From: Dethiobacter sp.
GTDB lineage: Bacteria; Bacillota; Dethiobacteria; DTU022; UBA8154
DNA length: 64,000 bases
Direction: 5' to 3'
NCBI GenBank assembly: GCA_020725665.1
Contig: DYEO01000024.1
Span: 17,408-81,407 of the forward strand
Each line of letters begins with the position of its first letter. The stretch's first letter is position 1. Under the pieces are notes generated by a model. It searched no databases. It saw nothing but the letters and a program-made list of their open reading frames with translations, and was not told the origin of the DNA. Both the position numbers and the translations under genes were made by a program. Positions 1 to 32,543 of this stretch are shown here, in pieces.

Positions 1-348
1 AACCTCAAGAGAGGGGGAATTCTGCTCATCCAGATTGCCGTAGGCAGCCTGTATATGTTCAGTGTCCCCAGAGGATATATCGACGGATTCGTATCATGGT
101 GCAAGCAGGTGGTGGGTTTATGCCTGACCGCATTTTTGCAAGCGACCATCCTCATTGCAGGGCTCATGGTGTTTAACAGCAACATGCTTCTAGGTCTTGG
201 CCTTATGCTTGCAGCTTCAGAGATACCACGGATTGCCGGACAGTTCGGACTTGACACCAGCACCAGGGGCAACCTCATGAGCACCATGTATGCAGCGCAG
301 ACTGCGATGAACATAACGCGCACAGTGGTAAGGGCGGTGGCAAAATGA
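1..348 (+). CDS. Conjugative-transfer integral membrane protein, C-terminal part (ORF enters from upstream of window; VirB6/TrbL-like guess)
   Basis: Reading frame 1 is open from nt 1 through the stop at 346-348. The translated sequence is hydrophobic with predicted TM segments. It sits immediately upstream of VirB3/VirB4-like genes. Confidence 0.35.
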   Translation, partial: NLKRGGILLIQIAVGSLYMFSVPRGYIDGFVSWCKQVVGLCLTAFLQATILIAGLMVFNSNMLLGLGLMLAASEIPRIAGQFGLDTSTRGNLMSTMYAAQTAMNITRTVVRAVAK

Positions 349-914
349 CGGATATGAAGCTGGTCTATATTTGTTCTCCCTATGCCGGGGATATTGAATA
401 TAACATCAAAATGGCAATAGCATACTGCCGCTACGCCGCAGACTGTGGCGTAATTCCCCTGGCTCCACATTTGCTGCTGCCAAGATTTCTCTGTGAATCG
501 AATCCGGTAGAACGAGAGCTGGGAATCAAAATGGGGCTTAAGCTTCTTGCCTTATGCTCTGAGCTGTGGGTGTTCGGTGACCGGATATCTGAGGGTATGC
601 GGCGTGAAATTCAGGAAGCCGAAAGGCTCGGGATTAAAATTATTTTTCAAGATTCAAATAAAATTCAGGGAGTGATGAACATGAAGCGGTGGGGAATTTG
701 GGCAAAGCGCAGTGCTGCCTCTATCTTCGGCGCTGCTGAAGATTGGCTGAAATCGGAAGGAAAAGTGCAAATCTTTGATACTTATGAGGAAGCTGCCGAG
801 AAAGCAAGCACACTTATGAAAAACATTGGCACGGCAAATGTCTCCTATTATCCCAAGGAAATAGAAATTGAACTAAATGAAGATCAATCCTCTGGCATAA
901 ACATGAAGCTATAA
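345..914 (+). CDS. DUF4406 domain protein (nucleoside 2-deoxyribosyltransferase-like fold) with C-terminal extension
   Basis: The N-terminus MKLVYICSPYAGD...IPLAPHLLLPRFL...CSELWVFGDRISEGMRREI matches the DUF4406 family commonly carried by conjugative elements. The protein ends with SGINMKL, a tail motif that recurs on four other proteins. Confidence 0.65.
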   Translation: MTDMKLVYICSPYAGDIEYNIKMAIAYCRYAADCGVIPLAPHLLLPRFLCESNPVERELGIKMGLKLLALCSELWVFGDRISEGMRREIQEAERLGIKIIFQDSNKIQGVMNMKRWGIWAKRSAASIFGAAEDWLKSEGKVQIFDTYEEAAEKASTLMKNIGTANVSYYPKEIEIELNEDQSSGINMKL

Positions 915-927
915 GGAGGGGAAGAGT

Positions 928-1230
928 ATGTATATTTACCCGGATAATTTAAAATCCAAGGCGGTATTGTGGCTGTGGCAGCTTCGGGATATCGGCATCA
1001 TCGGCATCGGATGTCTTGTTTCTGTGTTTGCGCTCGTACAGCTCGGCATCCTGCTTCCGATAGTGGCAACTGCCTTCTATGCTTTTTTAACCATCCGTTT
1101 TGAGGACACTTCTATCCTTGATTTTATCAAGTATGCCTGTGCCTTTTTTATAACCAAACAGCAGTTATATGAATGGAAGCTTCAACCCGCTGTCCATTCA
1201 GAACCGAATAGAAAGCAGGTGGACAAATGA
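928..1230 (+). CDS. PrgI/TcpE-family (VirB3-like) small conjugation membrane protein
   Basis: 100 aa with two predicted TM helices, directly upstream of and overlapping the VirB4-like ATPase start (ATGA overlap). RBS GGAGGGGAAG precedes the start. Confidence 0.55.
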   Translation: MYIYPDNLKSKAVLWLWQLRDIGIIGIGCLVSVFALVQLGILLPIVATAFYAFLTIRFEDTSILDFIKYACAFFITKQQLYEWKLQPAVHSEPNRKQVDK

Positions 1231-1817
1231 GCAAAAAAGAAAAAAAGACAGCCAAACAAAAGATCTCCACACGGCAGCTCATAAACACAAAGGCCATCAC
1301 TGACTACAGCCTTTTGACTTACGGCCACGGCGAACTGGTATATTTTATCATCAAGCCGACCAACATCTCGGTTCTGTCGGAAGCCAGTATCGCCGCCCGG
1401 ATCTATGCTCTGATGACTGTTCTGAAAGGCATGGCTGAGATTGAAATGCTGTGTCTTAACAGCCGTGAAAACTTTGAGGACAACAAGCGTTTTTTGCGAA
1501 ACCGCATTGAACAGGAGGATAACCCCACTGTCCGAAAACTTTTGGAGGCAGACTTGACCTTCCTTGACCGCATACAGGTGCAGATGGCGACCGCCCGTGA
1601 ATTCCTCATTGTTATCCGGTTACGGGATGAAAAATCGAACGAAGTGTTCCCGTATTTAAACCGCATTGAAAAAACCCTGCGAGAGCAGGGCTTTTCCGTT
1701 AAAAGGGCCGAAAAAGAGGACATCAAAAGAATCCTTGCCGTGTACTTTGAGCAGAATGTGACTACCGAAAAATTTGAGGACTTCGATGGTGAGAGATGGG
1801 TGATTTTTGGTGACTAA
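1227..1817 (+). CDS. VirB4/TrsE-like conjugation ATPase, N-terminal segment (196 aa) separated from the ATPase domain ORF
   Basis: Position (after the VirB3-like gene) and sequence character fit the N-terminal domain of Gram-positive VirB4 homologs (Tn916 Orf16 / ConE / TcpF type). Length 196 aa + 610 aa (ORF 3447..5279) = about 806 aa, the usual VirB4 size. Confidence 0.5.
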   Translation: MSKKEKKTAKQKISTRQLINTKAITDYSLLTYGHGELVYFIIKPTNISVLSEASIAARIYALMTVLKGMAEIEMLCLNSRENFEDNKRFLRNRIEQEDNPTVRKLLEADLTFLDRIQVQMATAREFLIVIRLRDEKSNEVFPYLNRIEKTLREQGFSVKRAEKEDIKRILAVYFEQNVTTEKFEDFDGERWVIFGD

Positions 1818-1839
1818 ATGGAAGTTTTTGTGGTATAAT
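1810..1839 (+). promoter_or_regulatory. Sigma-A-like promoter for fic-1 (-35 GTGACT, extended -10 TGTGGTATAAT)
   Basis: TTGTGGTATAAT at 1828-1839 and GTGACT about 17 nt upstream. It lies 36 nt upstream of the Fic start at 1875, and the -35 overlaps the stop of the VirB4 N-terminal ORF. Confidence 0.4.
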
Positions 1840-1874
1840 TAAATGATAAATACAATGAAAACAGGTGAATAAAG

Positions 1875-2645
1875 ATGGATATATACAGATTACTTGACTT
1901 ATATAAGGCTGCCATAGACGAGCGAAGACCCTTCGAGGGTGAGGTGCTGACACAACTTAAAGAATACTATCGTATCGGACTCACTTGGTCATCCAATGCT
2001 CTTGAGGGAAATACCCTTACGGAAAGTGAAACTAAAGTGCTGCTTGAGGATGGATTGACTGTTGGCGGTAAACCCTTGCGTTATACCTTTGAGGCAATCG
2101 GTCACGCAAAAGCCTATGATTTCATGTTCACCCTGCTTAAAAATAGAACCATCACGGAAAGAGATGTTCTGACAATGCATCAAATGTTTTATGAGAATAT
2201 AGAGAAAGAATATGCCGGAAGATACCGTGACATGGATGTTTTCATCAGCGGCTCCAGATATCCTGTGGCAGAAACAAAACGCATACAGGAAGAAATGGAT
2301 GGACTTTTTCAGTGGATTGCAACCGAAAGAGAGAAGTTTCATCCGGTAGTGTTTGCAGCACAGCTCCATAAAAGATTTGTCTTCATTCATCCGTTTAAAG
2401 ACGGAACTGGCAGAATTGCGAGGCTCATTATGAACACCGCACTGATACAGGATGGATATCTTTTGGCTGTAATTCCTCCAGTGCTTAGACATGAATACAT
2501 TGAACTTCTTGAAAAAGCCCATAGAGATGACAAACCTTTTGAACGATTTATTGCGGAGCGGGTTATTGAATCCCAAAAGGAAGTCATGCGGCTTTTGCAC
2601 ATACCAATTCCAAAGCTGGACAGCGGCATGGGTATGCAGCTATAG
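1875..2645 (+). CDS. Fic/DOC family protein (AMPylator-type)
   Basis: Fic motif HPFKDGTGRIARL (HxFx(D/E)GNGRxxR variant) at the expected position. The C-terminal tail is SGMGMQL. Confidence 0.85.
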   Translation: MDIYRLLDLYKAAIDERRPFEGEVLTQLKEYYRIGLTWSSNALEGNTLTESETKVLLEDGLTVGGKPLRYTFEAIGHAKAYDFMFTLLKNRTITERDVLTMHQMFYENIEKEYAGRYRDMDVFISGSRYPVAETKRIQEEMDGLFQWIATEREKFHPVVFAAQLHKRFVFIHPFKDGTGRIARLIMNTALIQDGYLLAVIPPVLRHEYIELLEKAHRDDKPFERFIAERVIESQKEVMRLLHIPIPKLDSGMGMQL

Positions 2646-2726
2646 CATAGATATATCAAATTATGATAGCGGAACCTTATTGCTTTACTATTAAAAGCAC
2701 GATTGCCAGAGATATGGTGATGTTAT

Positions 2727-3182
2727 ATGGACAAAGTCAATATAGTCAAAGGATGGCTTGATTTTGCAAATAAAGATATCAGCTGCGCAAAGCATCTCCT
2801 GGGTATGCGTCCGGTTCCATTGGAAATCATCTGCTATCACAGCGAACAGGCAGCCGAAGAAGCGGTAAAAGGTTTTCTTATATACCATAATGTCGAACCG
2901 CCCCGTACTTACGACTTAGAAATGTTATGCCGTATGTGCATGGATATTGACAATACTTTTGATAAGTTGATTGAGCCTTGTGGAAGACTTGCTAGATATG
3001 GCGAGCAGATATATCCTTTAGAGATGCAAATTTCACACAACGATATGAGAACAGCCATTGCTGATGCTGATCATGTAATGGAATTTGTACTTCAAAGGCT
3101 TCAGCTTGCCGAGGAAATTTCACCGGATGACGATAGGCAAAAAGACCAGCAAGAAAAAACAGCAGGGCAGCAACTAACGTAA
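2727..3182 (+). CDS. HEPN domain protein
   Basis: About 150 aa alpha-helical protein with HEPN-like conserved segments (KDISCAKHLL ... YHSEQAAEEAVKGFLIYH). It follows the Fic gene in the same cassette. Confidence 0.5.
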   Translation: MDKVNIVKGWLDFANKDISCAKHLLGMRPVPLEIICYHSEQAAEEAVKGFLIYHNVEPPRTYDLEMLCRMCMDIDNTFDKLIEPCGRLARYGEQIYPLEMQISHNDMRTAIADADHVMEFVLQRLQLAEEISPDDDRQKDQQEKTAGQQLT

Positions 3183-3446
3183 TATATTCATTATAAATAC
3201 CAAGCGAAAATCGTTTGGTGTTTTATTTTTGCCTTTTTTAAGGCTGCAGCCATGTTCTCTATCTTTATTAATGAAGGGTGAGGCTGCTCTTTATCTATTT
3301 TCTCCTATGGACTTCCGCTGCTTCTTCGTTTATTGTGTGTGCTGAGGTGATTAGGATGGCAGTTGTACAGGATACTTGTGGGAGGCTTGCCATAAAAATT
3401 CAGGCAGGTCTTTTTTATTTGTTTTTCGAGGAGAGGAGATGATGCA

Positions 3447-5279
3447 ATGCCAAAAGCAAATCGAATGAATACTGCCGTGGCGCAGGAGGACGTCCGCATA
3501 CAGGAATTTCTTGATATGATCGCACCGTCGGTCATCAAATTCAACACCGACCACTTCATCTGCGGCAATACCTACCGCTGTGTGTGGGCGCTTCGCGAGT
3601 ACCCCACAGCCACGGAGGAACAGGCAATCCTGCGCCACCTTGGGGAAAAGGACGGTGTCACTTTAAAGATTTATGCCCGTCACGTCACCCCTGTTGAGGA
3701 AAAGAAGATCATTAGCAATGCCGCCAACAAGAACCGCATGAAGCGGAGCAACACCAATGACCTCCAGCAGACCGTCACCGCTGAGAGCAATCTGCAGGAT
3801 GTAGCCTCCATCGTAGCCAGCATGCACCGGAACAAAGAACCACTGCTCCATGCCGCCGTCTACATTGAGCTTTTAGCATACGACCTTGAGCAGTTAAAGC
3901 TGCTGCAGACCGAGGTGCTGACCGAACTGATCCGCTCTAAGCTCAACGTTGACCGCCTCATGCTCCGCCAGCAGCAGGGCTTTATATGCGTGATGCCTTC
4001 GGGTTGGAATGTGTTCGGAGATCAGTTTGAGCGGGTACTGCCGGCATCCTCAGTTGCCAACCTTTATCCTTTTAACTACTCCGGCAAAACCGATGCCAAC
4101 GGCTTCTACCTGGGCAGGGACAAGTTCGGCAGCAACATTCTTGTGGATTTTAATAAACGTGCCGATGACAAGACCAATGCAAACATTCTCATTCTTGGCA
4201 ACTCAGGACAAGGAAAGTCCTACCTCCTGAAGCTCATCCTATGCAACATGCGGCAGTCCGGCATGCATGTACTGGCGCTTGATCCGGAGATGGAGTACGA
4301 GGAACTAACCAACAACCTTGGCGGCTGCTTTATTGACTTAATGTCCGGCGAATATATCATCAATGTGCTGGAACCGAAAACATGGGATGAAAACGGCGAT
4401 CCCAGGGATGCTGAAGCTCCCCAGGCGTTCCGGCAGACCTCCAAACTCAGCCAGCACATCAGCTTTCTCAAGGACTTTTTCAGAACATACAAGGATTTTG
4501 ACGACCGGCAGATCGACACCATTGAAATCATGCTGGGGAAGCTGTATGAGCAATGGGGCATCACGGACCACAGCAACTTTGACCGGCTTAAATCCACCGA
4601 TTATCCCATCCTGTCCAACCTATATGAGCTGATTGAAAACGAATACAAAACCTTTGATGAAAGCAAACGCCAGCTTTATACCGCAGAAATCCTGCAGCAG
4701 ATCTGCCTTGGACTCCATTCCCTATGCAAGGGTGCGGAGTCTAAATTTTTTAACGGGCATACCAACATCACCAGCAGCCATTTCATCACCTTCGGTGTGA
4801 AAGGACTGCTGCAGGCAAGCAAAAATATCCGCAACGCCCTGCTGTTTAACGTGCTGTCCTTCATGTCCAACGAGCTTTTAACCAAGGGCAATACGGTAGC
4901 AAGCATCGATGAGTTTTACCTGTTTCTTAACAACCTCACAGCGGTCGAGTATATCCGCAACTTTATGAAGCGTGTCCGCAAAAAGGACAGCGCCGTGATC
5001 CTTGCCAGCCAGAACCTGGAGGATTTCAATATTGACGGAATCCGGGAGTATACCAAGCCTTTGTTTTCCATACCGACTCATGCCTTCCTCTTTAATGCCG
5101 GAAATATTGATGCCAAATTCTACATCGATACCCTGCAGCTGGAGCAGAGCGAATATAACCTGATCCGCTACCCGCAGCGCGGTGTGTGTCTCTACAAATG
5201 CGGCAACGAGCGGTATAACCTCATGGTGACCGCGCCGGAACACAAGGCAAGGCTCTTTGGAAAGGCGGGCGGCAGATGA
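3447..5279 (+). CDS. VirB4/TrsE-like conjugation ATPase, ATPase-domain segment
   Basis: Walker A ILILGNSGQGKSYLLKLI, Walker B-like VLALDPE, and overall VirB4 (DUF87/TraC-type) architecture. The segment has its own RBS (GGAGAGGAG) and ATG start. Confidence 0.8.
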   Translation: MPKANRMNTAVAQEDVRIQEFLDMIAPSVIKFNTDHFICGNTYRCVWALREYPTATEEQAILRHLGEKDGVTLKIYARHVTPVEEKKIISNAANKNRMKRSNTNDLQQTVTAESNLQDVASIVASMHRNKEPLLHAAVYIELLAYDLEQLKLLQTEVLTELIRSKLNVDRLMLRQQQGFICVMPSGWNVFGDQFERVLPASSVANLYPFNYSGKTDANGFYLGRDKFGSNILVDFNKRADDKTNANILILGNSGQGKSYLLKLILCNMRQSGMHVLALDPEMEYEELTNNLGGCFIDLMSGEYIINVLEPKTWDENGDPRDAEAPQAFRQTSKLSQHISFLKDFFRTYKDFDDRQIDTIEIMLGKLYEQWGITDHSNFDRLKSTDYPILSNLYELIENEYKTFDESKRQLYTAEILQQICLGLHSLCKGAESKFFNGHTNITSSHFITFGVKGLLQASKNIRNALLFNVLSFMSNELLTKGNTVASIDEFYLFLNNLTAVEYIRNFMKRVRKKDSAVILASQNLEDFNIDGIREYTKPLFSIPTHAFLFNAGNIDAKFYIDTLQLEQSEYNLIRYPQRGVCLYKCGNERYNLMVTAPEHKARLFGKAGGR

Positions 5280-5348
5280 TCAAAAACCTGAGAAATCCAG
5301 TATGGGTGAAACGCCTGTGCTGCGACAAGGGGGTGAAGGTTTTTGGAG

Positions 5349-6374
5349 ATGAAGGACCAGCGCTTCGGCATCGAAATCGAATTGACGGGACTGTCCCGTC
5401 TGCGTGCCGCCCAGGTCATGGCGGAATACTTCGGCACGCCGGTTTCCCATGACGGGGGCTATTACGGCATCTATTCCGTCCTGGACGGCCAAAGCCGCCG
5501 GTGGAAGGTCATGAGCGACGGCAGCATCACTACAGAGAAAAAAGAAGGGCGGCGGATTATTCCGGCCGACAGCACCTACAGCGTGGAGCTGGTCAGTCCC
5601 ATTTGCAAATACGAGGATATTGAAACCATACAGGAGATTGTGCGGAAACTCCGGGCTGCCGGAGCCATTGCCAATGCAAGCTGCGGCATCCATGTCCATG
5701 TGGATGCGTCACATCACAATGCTAACACCCTGCGAAATATCACCAACATCATGGCCAGCAAGGAGGACTTGATCTACAAGGCGCTGCAGGTGAACGTGGC
5801 ACGGGAACGCCGCTACTGCAAAAAGGTGGAGCAGAGCTTTTTGGAGGAACTCAACCGCAAGAAGCCGAAAACCCTGGAGCAGGTCAGCCGGATCTGGTAC
5901 AACGGCAATGACGGCAGGCATGAGCATTACCACAACAGCCGGTACCACTGCCTGAACCTCCACAGCGTGTTCCAGAAAGGTACGATTGAATTCAGGCTGT
6001 TCAACGGCACCACCCATGCCGGAAAAATCAAGGCATACATCCAGCTCTGTCTCGCCATCAGCCACCAGGCACTGACACAGAGGTGCGCCAGCCGAATCAA
6101 AACCCAGAGCACCAATGAAAAATATACCTTCCGCACCTGGCTTCTGCGGCTGGGCCTTATCGGCGATGAATTCAAAACCGCACGGCTGCATTTGCTGGAG
6201 CATCTGGAGGGCTGCATTGCCTGGAAAGACCCCCAGCAAGCCGAGCGGCAAAAGGAACGGTTAAAGCAGAAGAAGGAAAAGGAACAGGCAGCCGCAGCTT
6301 TGGAAGAACAAAATCAAGAGGACATCGAACAGACCGAGGCTGAAGAATGCCCCGGTCTTTCTATGTCCATGTAG
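5349..6374 (+). CDS. Amidoligase family enzyme (glutamine-synthetase-like, conjugative-element associated)
   Basis: The GIEIEL start and GIHVHVD motif are typical of the putative amidoligase family (PF12224). RBS AGGGGGTGAAGG sits upstream of ATG 5349 (the ORF track begins at TTG 5343). The tail is PGLSMSM. Confidence 0.65.
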   Translation: MKDQRFGIEIELTGLSRLRAAQVMAEYFGTPVSHDGGYYGIYSVLDGQSRRWKVMSDGSITTEKKEGRRIIPADSTYSVELVSPICKYEDIETIQEIVRKLRAAGAIANASCGIHVHVDASHHNANTLRNITNIMASKEDLIYKALQVNVARERRYCKKVEQSFLEELNRKKPKTLEQVSRIWYNGNDGRHEHYHNSRYHCLNLHSVFQKGTIEFRLFNGTTHAGKIKAYIQLCLAISHQALTQRCASRIKTQSTNEKYTFRTWLLRLGLIGDEFKTARLHLLEHLEGCIAWKDPQQAERQKERLKQKKEKEQAAAALEEQNQEDIEQTEAEECPGLSMSM

Positions 6375-6389
6375 GAGGACTGATCAAAC

Positions 6390-6884
6390 ATGAAAAGCAA
6401 AACCTTGTACATTGCTTACGGAAGCAATCTCAACTTGCAGCAGATGGCATTTAGATGCCCCACTGCCAAGGTAATCGGGGCAAGTAAAATCAAGGACTAT
6501 GAGCTGCTGTTCCGCGGCGGTCGCAGAGGTTCGGTAGCAACGGTAGAACCGCTCAAGGGAAGCCATGTTCCTGTTCTTTTATGGGAACTGAAAGAAAAAG
6601 ACCTGCAGGCCCTTGACCGTTATGAGGGGTATCCCCGTTTTTACCGCAAGGAAATCCTTGATGTCGAGCTTAACGGCAAGACCATTTCTGCGATGGTTTA
6701 TATCATGAATGACGGACATCCCTTCGGATCTCCGTCCGATTACTATCTTAATGCCATCATGGAGGGCTACAAAAGCGCAGGTTTCGATACCGAGTACCTG
6801 GAGCAGGCGGTGGAAAAATCCATCCGGCTTGCTAAGGAACAACAGCCGGAACAGGAAAATCTGTTTGACTTGAAATGGTGGTGA
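6390..6884 (+). CDS. Gamma-glutamyl cyclotransferase (GGCT/AIG2-like)
   Basis: YIAYGSNLN N-terminal motif and GGCT fold length. It lies adjacent to the amidoligase gene, a known pairing in mobile elements. Confidence 0.75.
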   Translation: MKSKTLYIAYGSNLNLQQMAFRCPTAKVIGASKIKDYELLFRGGRRGSVATVEPLKGSHVPVLLWELKEKDLQALDRYEGYPRFYRKEILDVELNGKTISAMVYIMNDGHPFGSPSDYYLNAIMEGYKSAGFDTEYLEQAVEKSIRLAKEQQPEQENLFDLKWW

Positions 6885-7981
6885 TGGTTATGGCTGATCC
6901 GGCTACCATTACCCTTGCGGTCAGGGCGGCCATCGCCGCGGCAACCGACAAAAGGACATGGAAGGTTGTCGGCGTTCTTGTCGCCGCCATCCTGACGCCC
7001 TTCATTCTTATCGTTGTAATGATCGTGAGCCTGCTCTCGGCTGCGGCGGATCACAACAGCAACGCCATAGAATTGTGCTTCAACGGCGGCGCGATCTCTT
7101 CCCGGGTCCCCTCCGATTACGCCGCCTATATCCGGGATATGCAGAACAGCTTCGCCGGGATTGACACCGCCATCTCCGATATATCATCACTGGTGGAGGA
7201 CGGCAGTATCGACAGCACAAGGGTTAAGGCAATTTTCTATTCTCTGTTCTTCGGCGCTGAAAATCTGCAGATGGATAGCTCGGACTACCGTGCCTTTGCT
7301 GACTGCTTTGTCCGTTATGAAACCCGCACCCGAACCGTGGACAATGGCGATGGCACAACCTCGGAGGAAGAATACACCGTGGCTGTGCCGCTTAAATCAC
7401 TGCCGGAAATTTACGGAAACCTTCAGAGCGCCCTCGGTAGGAAAATCACTTATGAGGAACAGGCCAACGCTTCTGAGATTTACTACCGCATTGGCTACGG
7501 TGGCAGTGTCCCCACCTATGGAAAAGAATTCGATGTGTGGGTAAACGGACTGCCGCTGTCCGATGCACCCTTTACCGGCTTGGATGGTTTCTGTTCTCCC
7601 CTCAGGGAAAACTGGCGCAGCATGGTTACCTCGGAATTTGGCTACAGAACTGATCCCTTCACCGGCCAGCGCAGGGGACATTCCGGACTGGACATGGGAG
7701 CGTCTAAAGGCACACCGATCCATGCAGCCCTTGATGGTACGGTGCTGTTTGTGCGCTATAAGAACACAGGCTATGGCTATCATTTGGCCATCGACCATGG
7801 CGGCAGCTTCGTTACCTTATATGCCCATTGCTCCAAAATCCTTGTCACTGAGGGGCATACCGTGAAGGCGGGCGACATCATCGCACAGGTCGGTTCCACA
7901 GGCCGGAGTACCGGAGAGCACTTGCACTTTGAGGTACGAGTGAAGGGTGAAAAACAAAACCCAAGAAACTATCTGCCGTAA
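6875..7981 (+). CDS. M23/LytM family peptidase (conjugation-associated cell-wall hydrolase, TcpG/Orf14-like)
   Basis: N-terminal TM segment and a C-terminal M23 domain with HSGLDMGASKGTPIHAALDG ... GYHLAIDHGG ... STGEHLHFEV (HxxxD and HxH motifs). Confidence 0.85.
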   Translation: MVVMVMADPATITLAVRAAIAAATDKRTWKVVGVLVAAILTPFILIVVMIVSLLSAAADHNSNAIELCFNGGAISSRVPSDYAAYIRDMQNSFAGIDTAISDISSLVEDGSIDSTRVKAIFYSLFFGAENLQMDSSDYRAFADCFVRYETRTRTVDNGDGTTSEEEYTVAVPLKSLPEIYGNLQSALGRKITYEEQANASEIYYRIGYGGSVPTYGKEFDVWVNGLPLSDAPFTGLDGFCSPLRENWRSMVTSEFGYRTDPFTGQRRGHSGLDMGASKGTPIHAALDGTVLFVRYKNTGYGYHLAIDHGGSFVTLYAHCSKILVTEGHTVKAGDIIAQVGSTGRSTGEHLHFEVRVKGEKQNPRNYLP

Positions 7982-8092
7982 GCAGGGTGAAAAACGATGC
8001 CGTGGATTAGAAAAATGGGTAGCTTCCGATGGCGAGACTTCCTGTTAGAATAAACCTATAGCCTTCGTAATTCTGTCTAAGCTTATTAAAAG

Positions 8093-8103
8093 TGTGGTAT
8101 AAT
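8093..8103 (+). promoter_or_regulatory. Extended -10 promoter element TGTGGTATAAT for fic-2
   Basis: The same 11-mer as upstream of fic-1, located about 27 nt upstream of the fic-2 start. Confidence 0.35.
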
Positions 8104-8129
8104 GAAACAAATATTGTAAAAAAGGAGGA

Positions 8130-8933
8130 ATGCGCTTGGATCAATATAACCGGGCTGTTGAACTGTGGCAGTCATACAAAATTGCGTCCGCCGCTGATTT
8201 AGATAAATATCTTGACAGTTTCCGCATCCTGTTTGCGTTTCATTCCGGGAAAATAGAGAACGAGGAAATCACCTACCACGATACAAGAGAAATCTTTGAA
8301 AACGGCAGGGTTGTGGGCTACACCGGGAGTCCCCGTGCCCTGTTTGAGCAGCAAAACCAAAAGCTGTGCTATGAGTTTTTGAAAGAAAAAATCGTCAAGA
8401 AGGAGCCTCTCAGCATCGAGTTGGTCAAGGAGATGCACAAGGTTCTCACCGGCGGGACCTATGATGAGCGCAGGTATGTCGCCAATGAGGAACGGCCGGG
8501 TGAGTTTAAAAAACACGATTATGCGACCGGCGTCCATGAGGTGGGCTCCGCCGCGGAGGATGTGGAAAAGGACATGACAGAGCTGATTGCCGAAGTCAAC
8601 GCGTATGAGGGCAAAGATGTCTTAAAAGCCGCCACCTATCTTCACGCCAGGTTTGAGTATATTCATCCCTTTGCAGACGGCAACGGGCGTGTCGACAGGA
8701 CGCTGATGAATTACTATCTCATGACACATGATCACCCGCCCCTTATTGTCTATAACGAGGATAAGCGGATGTATTACGAGTGCCTGCAAAAGTATGATGA
8801 AGCCGAGGACTTAAATCCCCTTTATGAGTTTCTCAAATATGAAACCGAAAAGACATGGGAAAAGGTGCTGGCTCTTGCCGATGGCAGGAAGCCGGAACGC
8901 AAAGGTTTATCAGATTTTACCCAGAGTATGTAG
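8130..8933 (+). CDS. Fic/DOC family protein (second copy)
   Basis: Canonical Fic motif HPFADGNGRVDRTLMNY. The start may be TTG 8136, given RBS AAAGGAGG at 8121-8128. Confidence 0.85.
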   Translation: MRLDQYNRAVELWQSYKIASAADLDKYLDSFRILFAFHSGKIENEEITYHDTREIFENGRVVGYTGSPRALFEQQNQKLCYEFLKEKIVKKEPLSIELVKEMHKVLTGGTYDERRYVANEERPGEFKKHDYATGVHEVGSAAEDVEKDMTELIAEVNAYEGKDVLKAATYLHARFEYIHPFADGNGRVDRTLMNYYLMTHDHPPLIVYNEDKRMYYECLQKYDEAEDLNPLYEFLKYETEKTWEKVLALADGRKPERKGLSDFTQSM

Positions 8934-9008
8934 CAAACAGAATAATTTAGAAGCGAAAGTCATCTCGAAAAGGGATGGCTTTTTTGTTTGTCAAGGAGGG
9001 AAGAAAAA

Positions 9009-9386
9009 ATGTTAAAGACAAAAGCCATCTTTGAAAGAAAGGCCAATGATTTTCAACCCAGGGACTGCGTTATCGAAAAAATAATTGAGCTTACCTCACA
9101 GCAATACGATGTTTTTTCTAAAAACATGCTGGACGACTATGACTTTATCCGGAACAACATTGATCTCATGTACTGCGATAAGCAAGGTGTGTATCATTGT
9201 CTTTTAGTAGTAGGTGAGGACAGGCCGGACGGTATACTTGTAGAAAGCGAGGGAAGCAGTTACGCCCGTTACGCCGCTTTCTTGCCCAACGCCTGTGATT
9301 TTCTCGCTGCGCATCAGGAGCGAACTCAAGGGCTTCATGATGAAAAATTAAAGCCGGAATCTTTGGGTATGAAAATGAATTTATAG
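9009..9386 (+). CDS. Hypothetical protein
   Basis: RBS AGGAGGG 8 nt upstream of ATG 9009 (the ORF track begins at TTG 8988). No motif recognised. The tail is SLGMKMNL. Confidence 0.4.
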   Translation: MLKTKAIFERKANDFQPRDCVIEKIIELTSQQYDVFSKNMLDDYDFIRNNIDLMYCDKQGVYHCLLVVGEDRPDGILVESEGSSYARYAAFLPNACDFLAAHQERTQGLHDEKLKPESLGMKMNL

Positions 9387-9399
9387 GAGGAAAAGAGCG

Positions 9400-9773
9400 A
9401 TGAGAGAAACCGAACTGAAAATAATGTTCCCTACGGAGAAGCTGGATGCACTCCGTTTTTTATGGGCAAAAAGGAGCTAGCTGTTGAGCAGGAGCTTAAA
9501 GGTTACCTTGATAAAACCTATGAAAAAGTTGTTCCGGCACACGTCCGAGAATATGTGGAAAGCAGACTTGACCAAGTATCGCCGCAGGAGGAAAAGCTTG
9601 AACAGAGAGCTCAGGAGCAGCAGCCGGAGCCACAAAGGGAACGCCAGTCAAGACAAACCCGCCGCCAGCGTGAGCAGGCGGTGGCTGAATCAACGGCGTC
9701 ATCTCCGCAGGCCAGACAGCCGGAGCTGCCGGAAGAACCGGAAGAATCCCAGGGCATAAGCATGAACATGTAA
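9400..9773 (+). CDS. Small conserved conjugative-element protein, apparently frameshifted at a T6 tract (paralog of 11095..11349)
   Basis: ATG 9400 with a strong RBS AGGAGGAAAAG. The frame from 9400 gives MRETELKIMFPTEKLDALRF, then a -1 shift in TTTTTT (9456-9461) joins to FMGKKELAVEQ...YEKVVPAHVREYVESR (ORF 9462..9773). The fused sequence aligns along its length with the intact paralog MRKATIQIQYDAEKLRAIRQYMGK...YEKHVPAPVREYIESR. Confidence 0.5.
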
Positions 9774-9805
9774 AATCAAAAAAGAAAAAGGTGGTGCTAA
9801 TTTCA

Positions 9806-10687
9806 ATGATCAAGGTTGGTGTGGACAACGGAAACTACAACACCAAATCCTCGGAGGGGATGCTCTATGCCTCCGGATACACTGCAAGCGACAAGGAATT
9901 CATCACGCCGGACATGCAGCTCTTCTACGAGGGCAGGTATTACGCCGTCGGCGAGCGCCGCATGCGGTTCCAGCAGGACAAGACCAGAGAGCCGGATACC
10001 TTTATCCTGACGCTGCCGGCTATCGCTGACGCAATGAAGCGCGCAGGAACCATAAGCGCGGAAATCGCCCTTGGCGTGGGTCTGCCCATTGGCAGCTACG
10101 GGGTGCAGAAGGAGGTGTTCCAGCGATATTTCCTACGTGACAATGTTTCGTTCCTGTTCGAGGGAACATCCTACCGCTGCCGCATCGCCGAGTGCAAGGT
10201 GTTCGCGCAGGGTCATGCGGCGCTGTGCCGGTATTATCCGCGGCTGAAGGATTACCGCAGCATCACGATGGTGGATATCGGCGGGTATACGGTGGATGTA
10301 CTTACACTCCATGACTTCCGGCTGGACAGGTCGAGCTGCGCTAGCCTGCGCATGGGGACCATTACCCTCTACAGCCGGATTCAGGATACGCTCCAGCGTA
10401 ATGACATCCTCCTGTCGGACGAGCTCATCACCGACGCGATCCGCGGGGATATCCAGCACGCCGACAGCAAATTGATCCATGCTGTGGTGGAGCAGGCTGT
10501 GGCGGCTTACTGCAAAGAGTTGCTCAATGCGCTCAGGGAGCGCGGACTTGACCTGAGGCTCCCCACGGTGTTCGCGGGCGGCGGCGCGGAACTGCTGGAA
10601 CCAATGCTGCACAGGAGCGATCTCAATACTGTGGCGGTGTTGAACCGGTTTGCCAATGCGGACGGCTACAAGCTCCTGATGGGGTGA
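9806..10687 (+). CDS. ParM/StbA-like actin-family ATPase (partition or segregation protein)
   Basis: N-terminal IKVGVDNGNYNTKS phosphate-1 motif, DIGGYTVD phosphate-2-like motif, and ParM/StbA-like length. RBS GGTGGTG lies upstream of ATG 9806 (the ORF track begins at GTG 9791). Confidence 0.6.
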   Translation: MIKVGVDNGNYNTKSSEGMLYASGYTASDKEFITPDMQLFYEGRYYAVGERRMRFQQDKTREPDTFILTLPAIADAMKRAGTISAEIALGVGLPIGSYGVQKEVFQRYFLRDNVSFLFEGTSYRCRIAECKVFAQGHAALCRYYPRLKDYRSITMVDIGGYTVDVLTLHDFRLDRSSCASLRMGTITLYSRIQDTLQRNDILLSDELITDAIRGDIQHADSKLIHAVVEQAVAAYCKELLNALRERGLDLRLPTVFAGGGAELLEPMLHRSDLNTVAVLNRFANADGYKLLMG

Positions 10688-10691
10688 GCTT

Positions 10692-10985
10692 ATGTCCGGG
10701 CGAAAACGATACTATCTATCCTTTGATATGGACAACCCAAGGCACCGGGAGGCCGAGACGCTGCTTGCGCTGCAGGCCAGCAGGCGGCGCACCGAGTATG
10801 TGGTCACCAGCATCCTGGCGGCGCATCAGACGGAAAGCATGGAGCAGGTTGTCCGGCAAGCGGTCAGGGACGAACTGCGAAATGCTGCGCTGCAGCTTCA
10901 AGCTACACTGCCGGGAGAAACGGGCACCGATGTTCAGCTGTCCGATCTCCCCGACAGCCTTATCCATGCGCTGGAGGAACTGTGA
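10692..10985 (+). CDS. Hypothetical protein, possible ParR-like adaptor of the ParM-like ATPase
   Basis: Small basic protein immediately downstream of and overlapping the ParM-like gene. The assignment is by position only. Confidence 0.3.
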   Translation: MSGRKRYYLSFDMDNPRHREAETLLALQASRRRTEYVVTSILAAHQTESMEQVVRQAVRDELRNAALQLQATLPGETGTDVQLSDLPDSLIHALEEL

Positions 10986-11094: not shown

Positions 11095-11349
11095 ATGAGA
11101 AAGGCAACGATCCAAATCCAATACGATGCCGAGAAGCTTCGCGCCATCCGCCAGTACATGGGCAAAATTGACGCCGCCCTTGACAATGAACTGGAAGATG
11201 TGATGCAAAAGCTCTACGAAAAGCATGTCCCAGCGCCTGTCCGTGAGTACATTGAAAGCCGGGATTCCAGGGTGCAGGAAAAGCCGAAAAGACCGTTCCG
11301 GCCTTCCTCTACGGCTGCTGCCAATAATGATGCCAACACTACCGTGTAA
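11095..11349 (+). CDS. Small conserved conjugative-element protein (intact paralog of 9400..9773)
   Basis: Shares MR..T...I.Y..EKL.A.R.YMGK ... YEK.VPA.VREY.ESR with the 9400 gene. RBS AAGGAG precedes the start. Confidence 0.5.
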   Translation: MRKATIQIQYDAEKLRAIRQYMGKIDAALDNELEDVMQKLYEKHVPAPVREYIESRDSRVQEKPKRPFRPSSTAAANNDANTTV

Positions 11350-12189: not shown

Positions 12190-13965
12190 ATGCCCAGGAT
12201 CATATTCAAATGCCGGTACTTGAAAAATGCACCCAAAGCACACCTGGTAAATCTGGTAGAATATGTTGCTACTCGTGAAGGTGTTGAAAAAATTGATGAC
12301 AGTTCCAGAACTCTTCCTGCGACAAAAAAACAGCAGCAGCTGATTTCTGAAATCCTGAAAATACTGCCGGATACTGCTGACCTATTCGAGTACGAGGACT
12401 ATCTGAAAAATCCGACAAGCGAAAATGCATCGGAGTTTATTTCTATTGCTCTTGAAAACAATCTCGATCTGATCGGCAAAAAGAAAAACTTTGTAGACTA
12501 CATCGCCAATCGTCCGAGAGTTGAAAAGTTCGGCAGCCACGGACTCTTTACGGATGAAGGTGTACCTGTTGTACTATCAAAAGTTGCTGATGAAGTATCA
12601 AACCATTCCGGAAATGTGTGGACAAATATTGTATCCCTCAGGCGCGAAGATGCGTCAAGGCTGGGATATGACAATGCAAAGTCGTGGCAGGATTTGATCC
12701 GGGCACAGCGGAACGTTATCGCGGAAAACATGAAAATCGCTCCGGAAAATTTGCGATGGTATGCTGCTTTTCACAATGAGAGCCATCACCCGCATATCCA
12801 CCTGATTGCTTACTCCATCAATCCCAAAGAAGCCTATGTCACAAAGCAAGGGATAGAAAACATGCGGGGAAGTCTTGCGCGGGAAATCTTCCGCCAGGAC
12901 TTGATGCAGATTTATGAAAAGCAGACGGAACGACGCAATTCCCTGAATAGACAGAGTCGTGAGGCCATGCAGGACATCATTGCTCAAATTCGTTCAGGGA
13001 TATGTGAAAATAAAAATATAGAAGAATTGATTGCCCGCCTTGCTGAAAAGCTCAAGCATACTTCCGGCAAGAAACAATACGGTTATTTAAAAGCTTCCCT
13101 CAAGGTGCTCGTTAATCAGATTGTTGATGAGCTTGCAAAGGATGAAAGAGTGGCAAAATTATACGATAGTTGGTACGAAATGCGCAATGAAGTTTTAAGT
13201 ACGTATGCTGACAAGCTGCCGCCGCCTCTTCCATTGTCGCAGCAAAAAGAATTCAAAAGCATTAAAAATATGGTGATTGCTGAAGCGTTAAATATCGGCA
13301 GTCACCATTTCACTTTTGGGCCGGACGAGGAACAGGATATATCAATAAAAGGTGACATTGATATTGCTGCTGGTATCACATGTTTTGAAGAATCTGCAAA
13401 GCTCGGAAATGTCAACGCACAGTATATGCTCGGCAGGATTTATCTTGAATCGGACAGCGAGCATGAAAATGTAGAAAAGGCATTGCAGTGGCTGGGGAAA
13501 GCTGCGGACAACGGGAATGCTCTCGCACAGTATGCAATGGGGAAGCTGTACCTTACAGGAAACCATCTAGAGAAAGATGCCGTAAAGGCTGTGGAACTGT
13601 TCACCAAATCTGCAGTACAAGGCAATCAGCATGCGCAATATGCCCTCGGCAAACTGCATCTTTTGGGGCATGATGTCAGGCAGGATAAGGAAACAGCGGT
13701 GCATTGGCTGTCGGCAGCTGAAGCACAGGGAAATATCTATGCAAAGTATTTGTTGGAACGCATGGATTCCTTCAAAGACCCATCAATACTCCTTGCAGCA
13801 ACACGCTTGATGCATCACTTGGGCAACATCTTCAGAGAGAAGTATCAGAAAGCTTTTGGCAATCCTCTCATCCAGGTTGACCGCAAGCTCCACAAAAAAC
13901 TCATGGAGAAAAAACTGGCGCAAGGTCACGCATATAACGACCATGCGCCGCATCAAAGCTATTAG
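12190..13965 (+). CDS. MOBP-family relaxase/mobilization nuclease with C-terminal Sel1-like repeats
   Basis: Histidine triad HNESHHPHIHL typical of MOBP relaxases. The C-terminal 200 aa contain repeated AQY.LG.LY..G motifs (Sel1/TPR-like). Confidence 0.8.
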   Translation: MPRIIFKCRYLKNAPKAHLVNLVEYVATREGVEKIDDSSRTLPATKKQQQLISEILKILPDTADLFEYEDYLKNPTSENASEFISIALENNLDLIGKKKNFVDYIANRPRVEKFGSHGLFTDEGVPVVLSKVADEVSNHSGNVWTNIVSLRREDASRLGYDNAKSWQDLIRAQRNVIAENMKIAPENLRWYAAFHNESHHPHIHLIAYSINPKEAYVTKQGIENMRGSLAREIFRQDLMQIYEKQTERRNSLNRQSREAMQDIIAQIRSGICENKNIEELIARLAEKLKHTSGKKQYGYLKASLKVLVNQIVDELAKDERVAKLYDSWYEMRNEVLSTYADKLPPPLPLSQQKEFKSIKNMVIAEALNIGSHHFTFGPDEEQDISIKGDIDIAAGITCFEESAKLGNVNAQYMLGRIYLESDSEHENVEKALQWLGKAADNGNALAQYAMGKLYLTGNHLEKDAVKAVELFTKSAVQGNQHAQYALGKLHLLGHDVRQDKETAVHWLSAAEAQGNIYAKYLLERMDSFKDPSILLAATRLMHHLGNIFREKYQKAFGNPLIQVDRKLHKKLMEKKLAQGHAYNDHAPHQSY

Positions 13966-14111: not shown

Positions 14112-15593
14112 ATGGCAGGGTACGTACATTTTACCGATGAGCAGAAACAGCGCGCAAACTCCGTTGACCTTGCGGACTTTCTCAGACGGCAGGGGGAGCA
14201 GTTCATACGCTCCGGCAGGGAGTGGCGGTGGAAGCGTCATGATAGTGTGACAATCCGGGGCAACCGGTGGTTCCGCCACAGCGCCGGGCAAGGTGGTCTG
14301 GCCATTGATTTTGTGCAGGAATTTTATGGTCTCTCATTCCCTGATGCAGTGACATTGCTGCTGGGCGGCGAACAGGGTACGGCGTTTAAGCAAAGTGATA
14401 AAAAGATACCGGAAGCAGAACGAAAAGAATTCATACAGCCGGAGGCCGCAGATAATATGCGCCGGGTATATGCCTACCTTTTGAAGCAGAGATATATTGA
14501 CCGGGATGTCCTCACCCACTTTGTCAGAGAGAAAAAAATATATGAGGACAAGGAATATCACAATGTTGTTTTTGTAGGCTATGATGAAAACGGTACTGCC
14601 CGGCATGCACATAAAAGGGGAACCTATTCCAACGCTGCTGGTTACCGTGGCAATGTGGAAGGCTCCGATCCAAAATACAGTTTCAATTACATTGGTACAA
14701 GCAGTATTCTGTATGTATTTGAAGCTCCCATCGATATGCTGTCATTTATCACCTTGCATAAGAACGGTTGGCAGCAGCATAGTTATGTAGCGCTGGACGG
14801 TGTGGCTGAACATGCCATGCTTCATGTGCTGTCAAAAAATATGCATATTAAAAATGTGGTATTGTGCCTCGACCATGATCCTGCCGGTATAGAAGCTTCC
14901 GGGCGACTTACAGACATATTGCATGAAAAAGGATACGCCTGCATTTCATATTTACAGCCCGCATGCAAGGATTGGAATGAGGACTTGAAAGCGCAGCATG
15001 GCATAACACCGATTCCGGCAAAACCGCATCCGAAGCTTGAAGCCTGCAAAGAGCTGTGCGGAAAGATTCATTACTTGTGTAGCCATATCAAATCCGTGAA
15101 AAATCCCCATGAAATGCTGATGGAGCACTATGAAAAAGCAGTGCCCCTCATGCAGTCATCCAGGTCAGCCGATAGACAAAAAGCTGTCCTGATGGAACAG
15201 TTGCTAAGCATGGCGGTATATGCGTTATTTGCAGTGATGGCGCAATACCGGCAGCTTGAAAAACCAATGAATTTTAAACAACTGACCGATGAACTCTGTC
15301 ACAGCTATCACCCGCAGCAGGACCGGGGAAAGCTGAAAACCAAAGCAGAGGATATCCAGCAGGATGTCAATGCCATTAATGCTCAGCTCAAAACATCTGG
15401 AATCCGTACCCTTGAGGATAAGCAAAAATTAATCGCATCGTATATGAGTCTTGCACTAAACTGTGTCAAGGTTCAAATTTTTATATGTCTTGAAGAGCAG
15501 GAACAGAGAATAGAAGCTCTGCAAAAGCAGAATGAAGAGAGAGTCGATTATATGCAGGCTGTTTGCGAAGAATTTTTGCAGCCTGGTATTTAG
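14112..15593 (+). CDS. DUF3991/Toprim-domain protein (primase-like, conjugative element)
   Basis: The N-terminal region resembles DUF3991 and the central region is TOPRIM-like with acidic residues. Such proteins are commonly found between relaxase and coupling-protein genes in Firmicute ICEs. Assignment is from memory of family character; no diagnostic motif was verified. Confidence 0.4.
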   Translation: MAGYVHFTDEQKQRANSVDLADFLRRQGEQFIRSGREWRWKRHDSVTIRGNRWFRHSAGQGGLAIDFVQEFYGLSFPDAVTLLLGGEQGTAFKQSDKKIPEAERKEFIQPEAADNMRRVYAYLLKQRYIDRDVLTHFVREKKIYEDKEYHNVVFVGYDENGTARHAHKRGTYSNAAGYRGNVEGSDPKYSFNYIGTSSILYVFEAPIDMLSFITLHKNGWQQHSYVALDGVAEHAMLHVLSKNMHIKNVVLCLDHDPAGIEASGRLTDILHEKGYACISYLQPACKDWNEDLKAQHGITPIPAKPHPKLEACKELCGKIHYLCSHIKSVKNPHEMLMEHYEKAVPLMQSSRSADRQKAVLMEQLLSMAVYALFAVMAQYRQLEKPMNFKQLTDELCHSYHPQQDRGKLKTKAEDIQQDVNAINAQLKTSGIRTLEDKQKLIASYMSLALNCVKVQIFICLEEQEQRIEALQKQNEERVDYMQAVCEEFLQPGI

Positions 15594-15685
15594 CAATATT
15601 ATAACTGCATATTTGAAGAAAGCCATGTGCGAATGAAAAACCATTGGTGCATGGCTTTCTCAATTTTGCAAGAAGGAGGAAACCA

Positions 15686-32460: not shown

Positions 32461-32543
32461 AAACACTTGATATGGCTGGATTTGTGTGGTACTGTGTGTT
32501 GCTGATAAAGCATCATGTACTGAAAAGTGAAAGGAGGAAGCGT

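Follow-up and report, generated by a model that had tools for sequence, protein, structure and literature searches.

A short C-terminal motif on unrelated accessory proteins of a family of integrative conjugative elements from Clostridia

Do unrelated proteins encoded in the transfer module of a conjugative element share a C-terminal signal and, if so, what might read it? The question is raised by a stretch of 64,000 nucleotides from Dethiobacter sp. (contig DYEO01000024.1, positions 17,408 to 81,407; "the window" in the following). In Pfam scans, positions 1-17.5 kb of the window proved to be the transfer module of an integrative conjugative element (ICE) from Firmicutes. A preliminary description, made from the sequence alone, had noticed that five proteins of this module end with a similar hexapeptide. 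The best-supported conclusion from our analysis is that this tail is a conserved short linear motif, tied to conjugative elements and located at the C-terminus of unrelated soluble accessory proteins.

The tail and its conservation in related elements

All five tails were recovered: SGINMKL (stop codon at 912-914) on a DUF7768 protein, SGMGMQL (2643-2645) on a Fic protein (Fic-1), PGLSMSM (6372-6374) on an amidoligase, LGMKMNL (9384-9386) on a DUF6329 protein and QGISMNM (9771-9773) on a DUF6103-like small protein. The tail is indeed confined to the transfer region, as had been stated: among the 392 stop-to-stop open reading frames (ORFs) of at least 60 aa in the window, the terminal pattern G-[ILMV]-x-M-x-[LM] occurs in just these five, all of them on the plus strand between 345 and 9773. 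Given the amino-acid composition of the window, the chance of a match is 4.8e-5 per protein, so that 0.004 matches are expected among 81 genes; the probability of five or more is about 8e-15.

Some details of the preliminary description had to be revised. The motif as formulated there is present but too narrow, because G or A can occupy position -6 (counted from the C-terminus) and M or L positions -3 and -1, and because an acidic stretch usually precedes. A second Fic protein, Fic-2, had been credited with a weaker tail, but its end (...GLSDFTQSM) is outside the motif, and a different ending is conserved in its six orthologues. The small gene at 9400-9773 does carry the tail, but it is frameshifted and in frame with the tail only from the ATG at 9462. 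A run of six T (9456-9461) is found where the orthologues in loci L001 and L003 have seven, which corresponds to a 1-nt deletion; the first 20 codons are in a frame other than that of the tail-bearing part. The frameshift may represent a sequencing error, a pseudogene or slippage.

Related elements were collected with the VirB4-like ATPase as anchor query. This resulted in 80 loci (80-99% identity) from Desulforamulus, Pelotomaculum, Dehalobacter, Desulfosporosinus, Lacrimispora, Oscillibacter, Hungatella, Muricomes and many metagenome-assembled genomes. Genes were called by a crude greedy procedure, and tails were counted with the pattern [GA]-hydrophobic-x-[ML]-x-hydrophobic. The tail was found on 126 of the 1435 genes on the transfer (plus) strand, with about 2.3 expected, and on none of the 618 genes on the other strand, these being counts from loci that are not phylogenetically independent. 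The amidoligase is the most consistent carrier (62 of 66, in the form P-[GA]-[LF]-x-[ML]-x-M), and all 12 DUF5688 proteins are tailed (QQGMHLEM). Other carriers are the DUF6103-like small protein (27 of 59; QGMSMSM, PGMTMGM, QGMTMNM), DUF7768 (13 of 34, plus near variants such as SGMKLQY), DUF6329 (8 of 31, plus SPEMKL variants), an unnamed family of 202 aa (2 of 3) and a few DUF3991-Toprim primases (CGMKMTL and QNFNMTM, elements L039 and L004). Orthologues of the DUF7768 protein, which matches Pfam PF24963 (E 1.9e-42) in residues 5-100 only, end SGFSMRM, PGMSMKL, SGMGMKL or SGMKLQL, and those of the DUF6329 protein end PGMELKL, SPEMKL or EMQMNL. The carrier families are unrelated soluble proteins. 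Among the clustered genes of these loci, the tail never occurs on VirB4, TrbL, the VirB3-like protein, the 196-aa protein, the M23 peptidase, ParM or the relaxase, and it is absent from the cyclotransferase (GGCT) of the clade to which the window belongs.

Outside this set, the motif was found in thousands of database proteins from elements of Lachnospiraceae, Oscillospiraceae, Ruminococcus and Peptococcaceae. The distant amidoligase of pCW3-like plasmids from Clostridium perfringens (24% identical) has no tail, which indicates that the tail is lineage-specific and not universal among conjugative amidoligases.

The consensus is a stretch rich in D and E, followed by [P/Q/S]-[G/A]-hydrophobic-x-[M/L]-x-[M/L/F/Y]-COOH, on a flexible and usually acidic linker. 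Information content is highest at -7, -6, -5, -3 and -1. Amidoligase orthologues keep P at -7, G or A at -6, L or F at -5, M or L at -3 and M at -1, with -4 and -2 being free. Directly ahead of the first hydrophobic residue stands G (fraction 0.75-0.77) or else A; Q, where present, is found one residue further upstream. M or L occupies -3 in 92-100% of the tails, -2 is often K or R, and the last residue is M, L, F or Y. The acidic fraction at -25 to -8 is 0.35 in amidoligases of the window clade, 0.44 in a divergent amidoligase clade described below and 0.26 in other tailed proteins, compared to 0.16 in all plus-strand genes. Most tails are terminal. In some lineages one to three extra residues follow the motif (PGLSMSMQ, KGMEMGG, QQPVMQMG, DMAMNMG), and this tolerance may argue against a strict need for the terminal carboxylate, such as ligands of PDZ domains, tail-specific proteases or TPR carboxylate clamps would have.

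It might be supposed that the tails are due to chance, or follow from some DNA or RNA element located at the gene junctions, such as a ribosome-binding site (RBS), a terminator, a recombination site or a site of translational coupling. Three of the five window tails do directly precede an RBS. As had been described, an RBS follows directly after the stops at 914, 6374 and 9386; none is found after 2645, and after 9773 it is located about 20 nt downstream. The nucleotide likeness of the tails, which had also been pointed out, is real but no greater than the amino acids impose. Conservation is codon-periodic: in amidoligase orthologues the tail codons vary synonymously (GGC/GGT/GGA, CCC/CCG, and the Ala codons too), TAA, TAG and TGA are all used as stop, and the next RBS is 0-25 nt away. 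Neither a direct-repeat family nor a terminator-like hairpin coincides with any of the window tails, so that the artefact of an overlapping DNA element, envisaged in the preliminary description, did not materialize. Judged by fixed hydrophobic positions, free x codons and a variable stop and RBS distance, selection is on the protein and not on the DNA. Together with the probability given above, this led us to reject a DNA-level explanation, and the likelihood that we assign to chance or a junction element is close to nil.

The amidoligase (Pfam PF12224, E 9.5e-85) illustrates how the tail is attached. Behind a catalytic domain (aa 1-296), the predicted fold of which matches YbdK, glutamine synthetase (GS) and Dop, come a helix (297-323) and then an acidic, disordered linker that bears the tail. 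In the AlphaFold2 model (mean predicted local distance difference test score, pLDDT, 87.8) the catalytic domain and the helix are confident while residues 327-343 are below 50, which means that in this model the tail is an exposed linear motif, neither part of a fold nor docked in cis.

Phage copies and divergent amidoligases

The amidoligase, DUF7768 and DUF6329 families also occur in phages of the same host group. In true phages, with terminase, portal and head genes, the amidoligases have 296-313 aa and end ...AWRHAA, ...ENTAA or ...RSAA, and DUF7768 stops 5-20 aa past the catalytic domain. Phage copies are devoid of the linker as well as of the tail. The tail was found on none of the phage-type amidoligase relatives (0 of 80 in IMG/VR, 0 of 3 in annotated phages), on none of the relatives of the DUF7768 catalytic domain (0 of 44 on IMG/VR viral contigs, 0 of 5 in annotated phages), not on the sole phage homologue of DUF6329 (0 of 1), and on none of the 1777 called genes of those phage loci.

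A search of IMG/VR with the catalytic domain of the window amidoligase alone resulted in 78 loci, five of which are tailed. Four of these (L222, L223, L224, L226) hold homologues of VirB4, the M23 peptidase and the relaxase and, by this gene content, are conjugative elements inside the viral collection. The fifth (L273) is recombinase-linked, with McrBC, macro, vWA, WYL and ImmA cargo upstream and without phage structural genes. Thus, 4 of 5 IMG/VR loci with genes of a type IV secretion system (T4SS) are tailed versus 1 of 73 without a detected T4SS protein (Fisher P about 2e-5, for loci that are again not phylogenetically independent). For gene families shared between phages and conjugative elements, these counts show the tail to be almost entirely restricted to the copies in conjugative elements, as far as copies were compared.

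Phage amidoligases end Ala-Ala or x-Ala in 72 of the 80 IMG/VR loci, e.g. ...GNSAWRHAA (L081 6004-6894; L082 1462-2400; L097-L176), and these Ala-Ala ends resemble ssrA-type ClpX signals. Among 150 amidoligase representatives (50% identity clusters), about 10 have an acidic linker and a hydrophobic tail, most others ending ...GNSAWRxxAA; most non-ICE representatives (P0127-P0270) end Ala-Ala-like, as the phage copies do. On many phage contigs of IMG/VR the match to a 296-aa amidoligase spans about 1.3 kb instead of 0.89 kb (L156 6001-7310, L244 8001-9304, L257 8001-9283), which implies an insertion of about 420 nt, perhaps an intron, an intein or a homing element. One amidoligase from an ICE context in IMG/VR (L232) is fused to a C-terminal extension of 404 aa that ends ...QTQGLKM.

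A divergent clade from Ruminococcus and relatives, 39-50% identical to the window amidoligase, has an acidic linker and hydrophobic-x-M-x-M in about 105 of 120 members (e.g. ...EEDEEMDMEMSM, ...ESESFGMAM, ...EEESAVTMNM). Here the same amino-acid pattern is written with different codons. The amidoligase-GGCT pair of these elements adjoins one to three large serine recombinases, and several neighbours also have acidic ends with MxM: GGCT (...DDDMQMKF, ...DDDIQMSFKL), DUF6329 (...GEDMGMGGMT), DUF4314 (...ESEGQNMGM) and a 143-aa protein (...AEDMAMNMG). The context includes methylases and Bro-N/ANT, LPD28, DUF3849 and YodL/DUF3846 genes, and LPD28, DUF3849, YodL and methylases are domains typical of conjugative leading regions. 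We take LPD28 to be a "large polyvalent-protein-associated domain". The large polyvalent-protein class has been proposed to be delivered with DNA (PMC5512222).

A triple of adjacent large ORFs (about 510-557, 280-326 and 540 aa) occurs in the window (Table 1), in L089 (5800-9936), in L091 (5928-9940) and in L273 (2760-7912). In L089 and L091 these are Pfam-annotated serine recombinases. The assignment is size-based in the window and in L273; the window ORFs are read as serine recombinases because their sizes match the annotated L089 triple (511, 279 and 538 aa). The recurrence of a recombinase-like triple beside tailed amidoligase-GGCT pairs of divergent elements suggests a backbone in common.

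Other genes of the transfer module

The features of the window are listed in Table 1. PDB sequence searches with the 196-aa protein and with the amidoligase gave no match.

Table 1 Annotated features of the transfer module and of a recombinase-like region in the window. Tail codons are given for the five proteins that carry the motif.
Feature	Position	Strand	Remarks
TrbL_5, C-terminal part	55-348		Pfam
DUF7768 (nucleoside deoxyribosyltransferase-like) with C-terminal extension	345-914	+	tail codons GINMKL 894-911
Small membrane protein	928-1230
Conserved 196-aa protein	1227-1817		no Pfam match
Fic-1, class II Fic	1875-2645	+	Pfam Fic; N-terminal SxxxEG inhibitory motif; tail codons GMGMQL 2625-2642
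HEPN	2727-3182
VirB4-like ATPase	3447-5279	+	Pfam AAA_10, TraG P-loop, DUF87
Amidoligase_2, glutamine-synthetase/YbdK-like carboxylate-amine ligase	5343-6374	+	tail codons GLSMSM 6354-6371
GGACT/AIG2 cyclotransferase (GGCT)	6390-6884
M23 peptidase	6875-7981
Fic-2	8130-8933	+	does not carry the motif
DUF6329 protein	9009-9386	+	Pfam PF19854; tail codons GMKMNL 9366-9383
DUF6103-like small protein	9400-9773	+	long linker rich in Q/E/R/P; tail codons GISMNM 9753-9770
ParM-like actin	9791-10687
DUF6103 paralogue adjoining the relaxase	11095-11349		without tail
MobL relaxase with C-terminal Sel1 repeats	12190-13965	+	Pfam MobL, Sel1; Sel1 repeats at aa ~392-548 (nt ~13363-13833)
DUF3991-Toprim primase	14112-15593
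VirD4-type coupling protein	15644-17524	+	Pfam T4SS-DNA_transf, TraG-D_C, TrwB_AAD_bind
Three large ORFs (557, 326, 544 aa)	32472-36708		taken as large serine recombinases from size

The ParM-like actin gene is followed by a gene for a 97-aa protein (10692-10985) without a Pfam match, the N-terminus of which looks ribbon-helix-helix (RHH)-like by eye (YYLSFDMDNPRH...). It terminates in an acidic amphipathic ...LIHALEEL, and the protein is likely a ParR-like adaptor of the actin. About half of the related elements have this cassette.

Fic-1 and HEPN (1810-3223) are flanked by a promoter-like site (1810-1839) and a terminator-like hairpin (3195-3223) and look like an inserted cassette. The corresponding site in L308 is occupied by MNT, HEPN and Fic.

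In L001, two polytopic membrane proteins (309 and 290 aa, within 440-2247) are encoded upstream of the genes for a VirB2-like pilin and TrbL. By eye they resemble TadB/TadC-type (GspF-like) proteins, and a secreted protein of 574 aa is encoded next.

Possible receptors, rival explanations and known signals

As to function, we tentatively propose that the tail may be a docking or translocation signal that is read by the element's own transfer machinery, either by the VirD4-type coupling protein (T4CP) or by the Sel1 domain of the relaxase. The ICE family of Clostridia would have appended the tail to soluble accessory ("establishment") proteins, and the tail would dock its carriers on one common receptor. 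The coupling ATPase would be the most likely receptor, with the Sel1-repeat domain of the MobL relaxase as an alternative. Docking would recruit the carriers to the mating channel, and they would probably be passed into the recipient together with the DNA. The more specific version, put forward with greater reserve, is that the signal might load establishment enzymes (amidoligase, GGCT, the nucleoside deoxyribosyltransferase (NDT)-like protein, Fic, primase and small DNA-binding proteins) onto the coupling protein, or on the relaxase via Sel1, for injection into the recipient along with the DNA. That a receptor exists, which protein it is and that the carriers are translocated are what we infer here, and T4CP and Sel1 domain are both candidates only in this sense.

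The Sel1 domain is a candidate because it has a bona fide peptide-binding repeat fold (PDB matches to E 7.5e-46) and is conserved: it is kept in every locus with a complete relaxase in range, the sole miss being a truncated ORF of 295 aa in L044. No relaxase with Sel1 repeats was encountered in the literature searched for this analysis. The relaxases of related elements are 860-1000 aa in length, additional sequence lying between their relaxase and Sel1 portions. The ParM-like actin is unlikely as a universal receptor, being present in just 27 of 52 full loci with tails persisting in its absence. The charge and isoelectric point (pI) of the element proteins did not point to any basic receptor. 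In Gram-negative systems, primases are transferred during conjugation, and the tailed primases of L039 and L004 would fit a transfer signal. Conjugation machines have been described to transfer many element-encoded proteins (PMC8406263, PMC11288057).

Several observations weigh against a signal for the transfer machinery, in addition to the phylogenetic non-independence of the tail counts. The linkers of the window's own tails are weakly acidic, notably those of Fic-1 and the DUF6329 protein. In the divergent amidoligase clade no T4SS gene was found within 10 kb. All that is seen there are serine recombinases and cargo genes, to which L093 adds T4CP fragments; the tie of this clade to conjugation is indirect. 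Among the 80 loci, just 2 of 23 ICE-borne Fic homologues have the tail, and ICE copies of tailed Fic-1 are those of the window, L001 and L308. Close homologues of Fic-1 (71-98% identical) end ...HIPIPKL, or have eroded ends (DSGKGTP, DSSTG, DSGEGTQT), or show an intact DSGMGMQL or DSGMGMKL; the intact tail occurs in 15 of 120 and is concentrated among the nearest relatives of the ICE copy. When six tailed homologues were looked up, five (P0395, P0439, P0400, P0396, P0397) proved to be chromosomal and solitary, a T4SS gene being absent from the 7 kb around them, while the sixth (P0403) sits in a TrbL_5-DUF7768-...-MNT-HEPN-Fic transfer module. Two untailed homologues are likewise chromosomal. 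The solitary tailed genes mean that the tail is not exclusive to ICEs in the Fic family. They may be recent escapes with a decaying tail or orphan effectors acting in trans, or may point to a host receptor. The preliminary description had considered two roles, that of a type IV substrate tag and that of a degron, and had proposed to check whether the tail is kept only inside a T4SS module. Association with the T4SS is found for the amidoligase, DUF7768 and DUF6329; Fic-1, with its solitary chromosomal copies, partly contradicts it. Also, the contrast between ICE and phage copies would equally fit a degron, if a donor has to clear the enzymes, which a lytic phage need not.

Such a degron would be recognized by a host AAA+ protease (ClpXP, ClpCP, FtsH or Lon), so that element enzymes with a potential for harm (Fic, amidoligase, NDT-like) would not persist for long in a donor that survives. 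We consider this explanation rather unlikely. Known C-terminal degrons, such as the LAA of ssrA and the tails of Spx, Sda and SpoIIAB in Bacillus, share with the tail that they are exposed, partly non-polar and at the extreme C-terminus; the tail is borne by a linker that is disordered. In Bacillus, short C-termini without charge (LAA, LAN, LCN, VSS) act as Clp signals. A host protease would also be at hand for the solitary chromosomal Fic genes, for which a receptor from an element is not obviously available, and the ssrA-like Ala-Ala ends of the phage amidoligases may indicate that C-terminal turnover signals are a theme of this enzyme family. However, the motif is unlike the known Clp C-motifs, which have neither a conserved G/A with P/Q/S upstream nor frequent K/R at -2, features that a pore-loop degron would not need. 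The terminal Ala-Ala of ssrA-like ends (ClpX C-motif 1) is not found in the tails; it is the phage homologues that end AA. Residues following the motif are tolerated in some lineages, and if the phage copies already have an AA-type signal, its replacement by 45-80 aa of helix, acidic linker and new tip suggests another purpose. Distinctly unlikely, in our view, is docking to a host hub (the beta sliding clamp or partners of the acidic and hydrophobic C-terminal SSB tip), by which the enzymes would reach element DNA as it enters or replicates. Alternating hydrophobic residues at a C-terminus behind a flexible acidic linker resemble clamp motifs of the QLxLxL type, a primase, the DUF6103-like protein, which binds DNA, and an enzyme resembling nucleoside transferases are among the carriers, and a host receptor would fit the chromosomal Fic genes. 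Clamp-binding motifs (QL[SD]LF or QLxLxL) begin with Gln and have hydrophobic residues at 2, 4 and 5 or 6, and the SSB tip is Pro-Phe; here G/A replaces the Gln, and neither the terminal aromatic of QL[SD]LF nor a Pro-Phe tip is present. Moreover, DUF7768 of phage replication modules would gain equally from clamp binding, yet it is never tailed.

The adjacent amidoligase-GGCT pair could itself act on the tail as recognition site or substrate, in a system of peptide tagging with the ligase modifying the C-terminal carboxylate. The GS/YbdK/Dop-like fold, the amidoligase being the most consistently tailed family and the tailed GGCT of some elements would be in line with this. We consider it highly improbable, since four loci in which VirB4 is directly followed by M23 and neither enzyme was detected in the fetched locus (L002, L008, L020, L061) keep one to three tailed proteins, solitary tailed Fic genes have no amidoligase nearby, and residues after the motif argue against chemistry at the terminal carboxylate. 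The amidoligase is thus an unlikely writer or reader of the tail.

Comparison with known systems gives partial likenesses. The Dot/Icm (type IVB) signal is also short, degenerate, disordered, located at the extreme C-terminus and found on many unrelated soluble proteins; its E-block, an acidic stretch about 8-25 residues from the end, and a hydrophobic residue at -3 have counterparts in the tail. In contrast, the tail motif ([GA]-hydrophobic-x-M-x-M) is much sharper, translocation is only putative, and we are dealing with a Gram-positive element of VirB4/VirD4/TrbL type for which Pfam scans of the transfer module revealed no Dot/Icm components, including those of the DotL-DotM-DotN/IcmSW coupling complex. 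Review articles describe the C-terminal Dot/Icm signals as acidic plus hydrophobic and the effectors as contacting DotM. Positively charged C-terminal substrate signals of VirB/D4 systems and the BID domain of Bartonella and FicT effectors are likewise appended to unrelated proteins, including Fic toxins, in the context of a conjugative T4SS (PMC5675462, PMC6509941). They differ in being Arg-rich instead of acidic, and the tail consists of 6-7 residues plus a linker without a BID-like folded domain. In TraD of F and TrwB of R388 a flexible C-terminal tail contacts a relaxosome accessory protein (TraM or TrwA), and reviews describe such tails as mediating contacts between T4CP and relaxosome in both systems. 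The polarity is the opposite: in those systems the coupling protein bears the tail, whereas in the present elements cargo and accessory proteins do, several in each element. In F, the tail of TraD is acidic and its tip hydrophobic. In type VII secretion, the EsxB/CFP-10 signal resides in an unstructured tail at the C-terminus, hydrophobic at -7, -3 and -1, to which the FtsK-like ATPase EccC binds. Hydrophobic residues at intervals, Met among them, in an unstructured tail, and a reader of the FtsK/HerA class to which T4CPs belong, are similar, but the secretion system is another one and its substrates are helical-hairpin WXG proteins, unlike the tailed proteins. Encapsulin cargo-loading peptides and microcompartment encapsulation peptides also target unrelated enzymes to one destination by a single terminal peptide; this is a likeness in logic only, as the motif sequence differs and no shell genes are present. 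In form, the tail seems most like the Dot/Icm signal or the coupling-protein/relaxosome contacts, yet it is not a member of any of these families.

Our literature searches revealed no description of this motif or of any C-terminal signal of a Gram-positive T4SS, and no Gram-positive conjugation system is known to have a defined signal for protein substrates. A 2025 review considers the experimental evidence on Gram-positive substrate signals to be limited (PMC12857230), and recent reviews describe substrate recognition in these systems as poorly defined. The motif is sharp enough for searching, and the untailed phage copies of the same enzymes provide a built-in control. If the tail is a transfer signal, it would be the first signal for protein translocation to be defined in a Gram-positive T4SS, used by elements of gut and environmental Clostridia. 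The sequence alone could then suffice to predict repertoires of effectors, there would be a handle for asking whether these elements inject enzymes into recipients, and engineered proteins might be tagged with the tail for delivery from one gut anaerobe to another. Should it instead be a degron or a host-hub motif, it would still represent a new regulatory module that is specific to conjugative elements.

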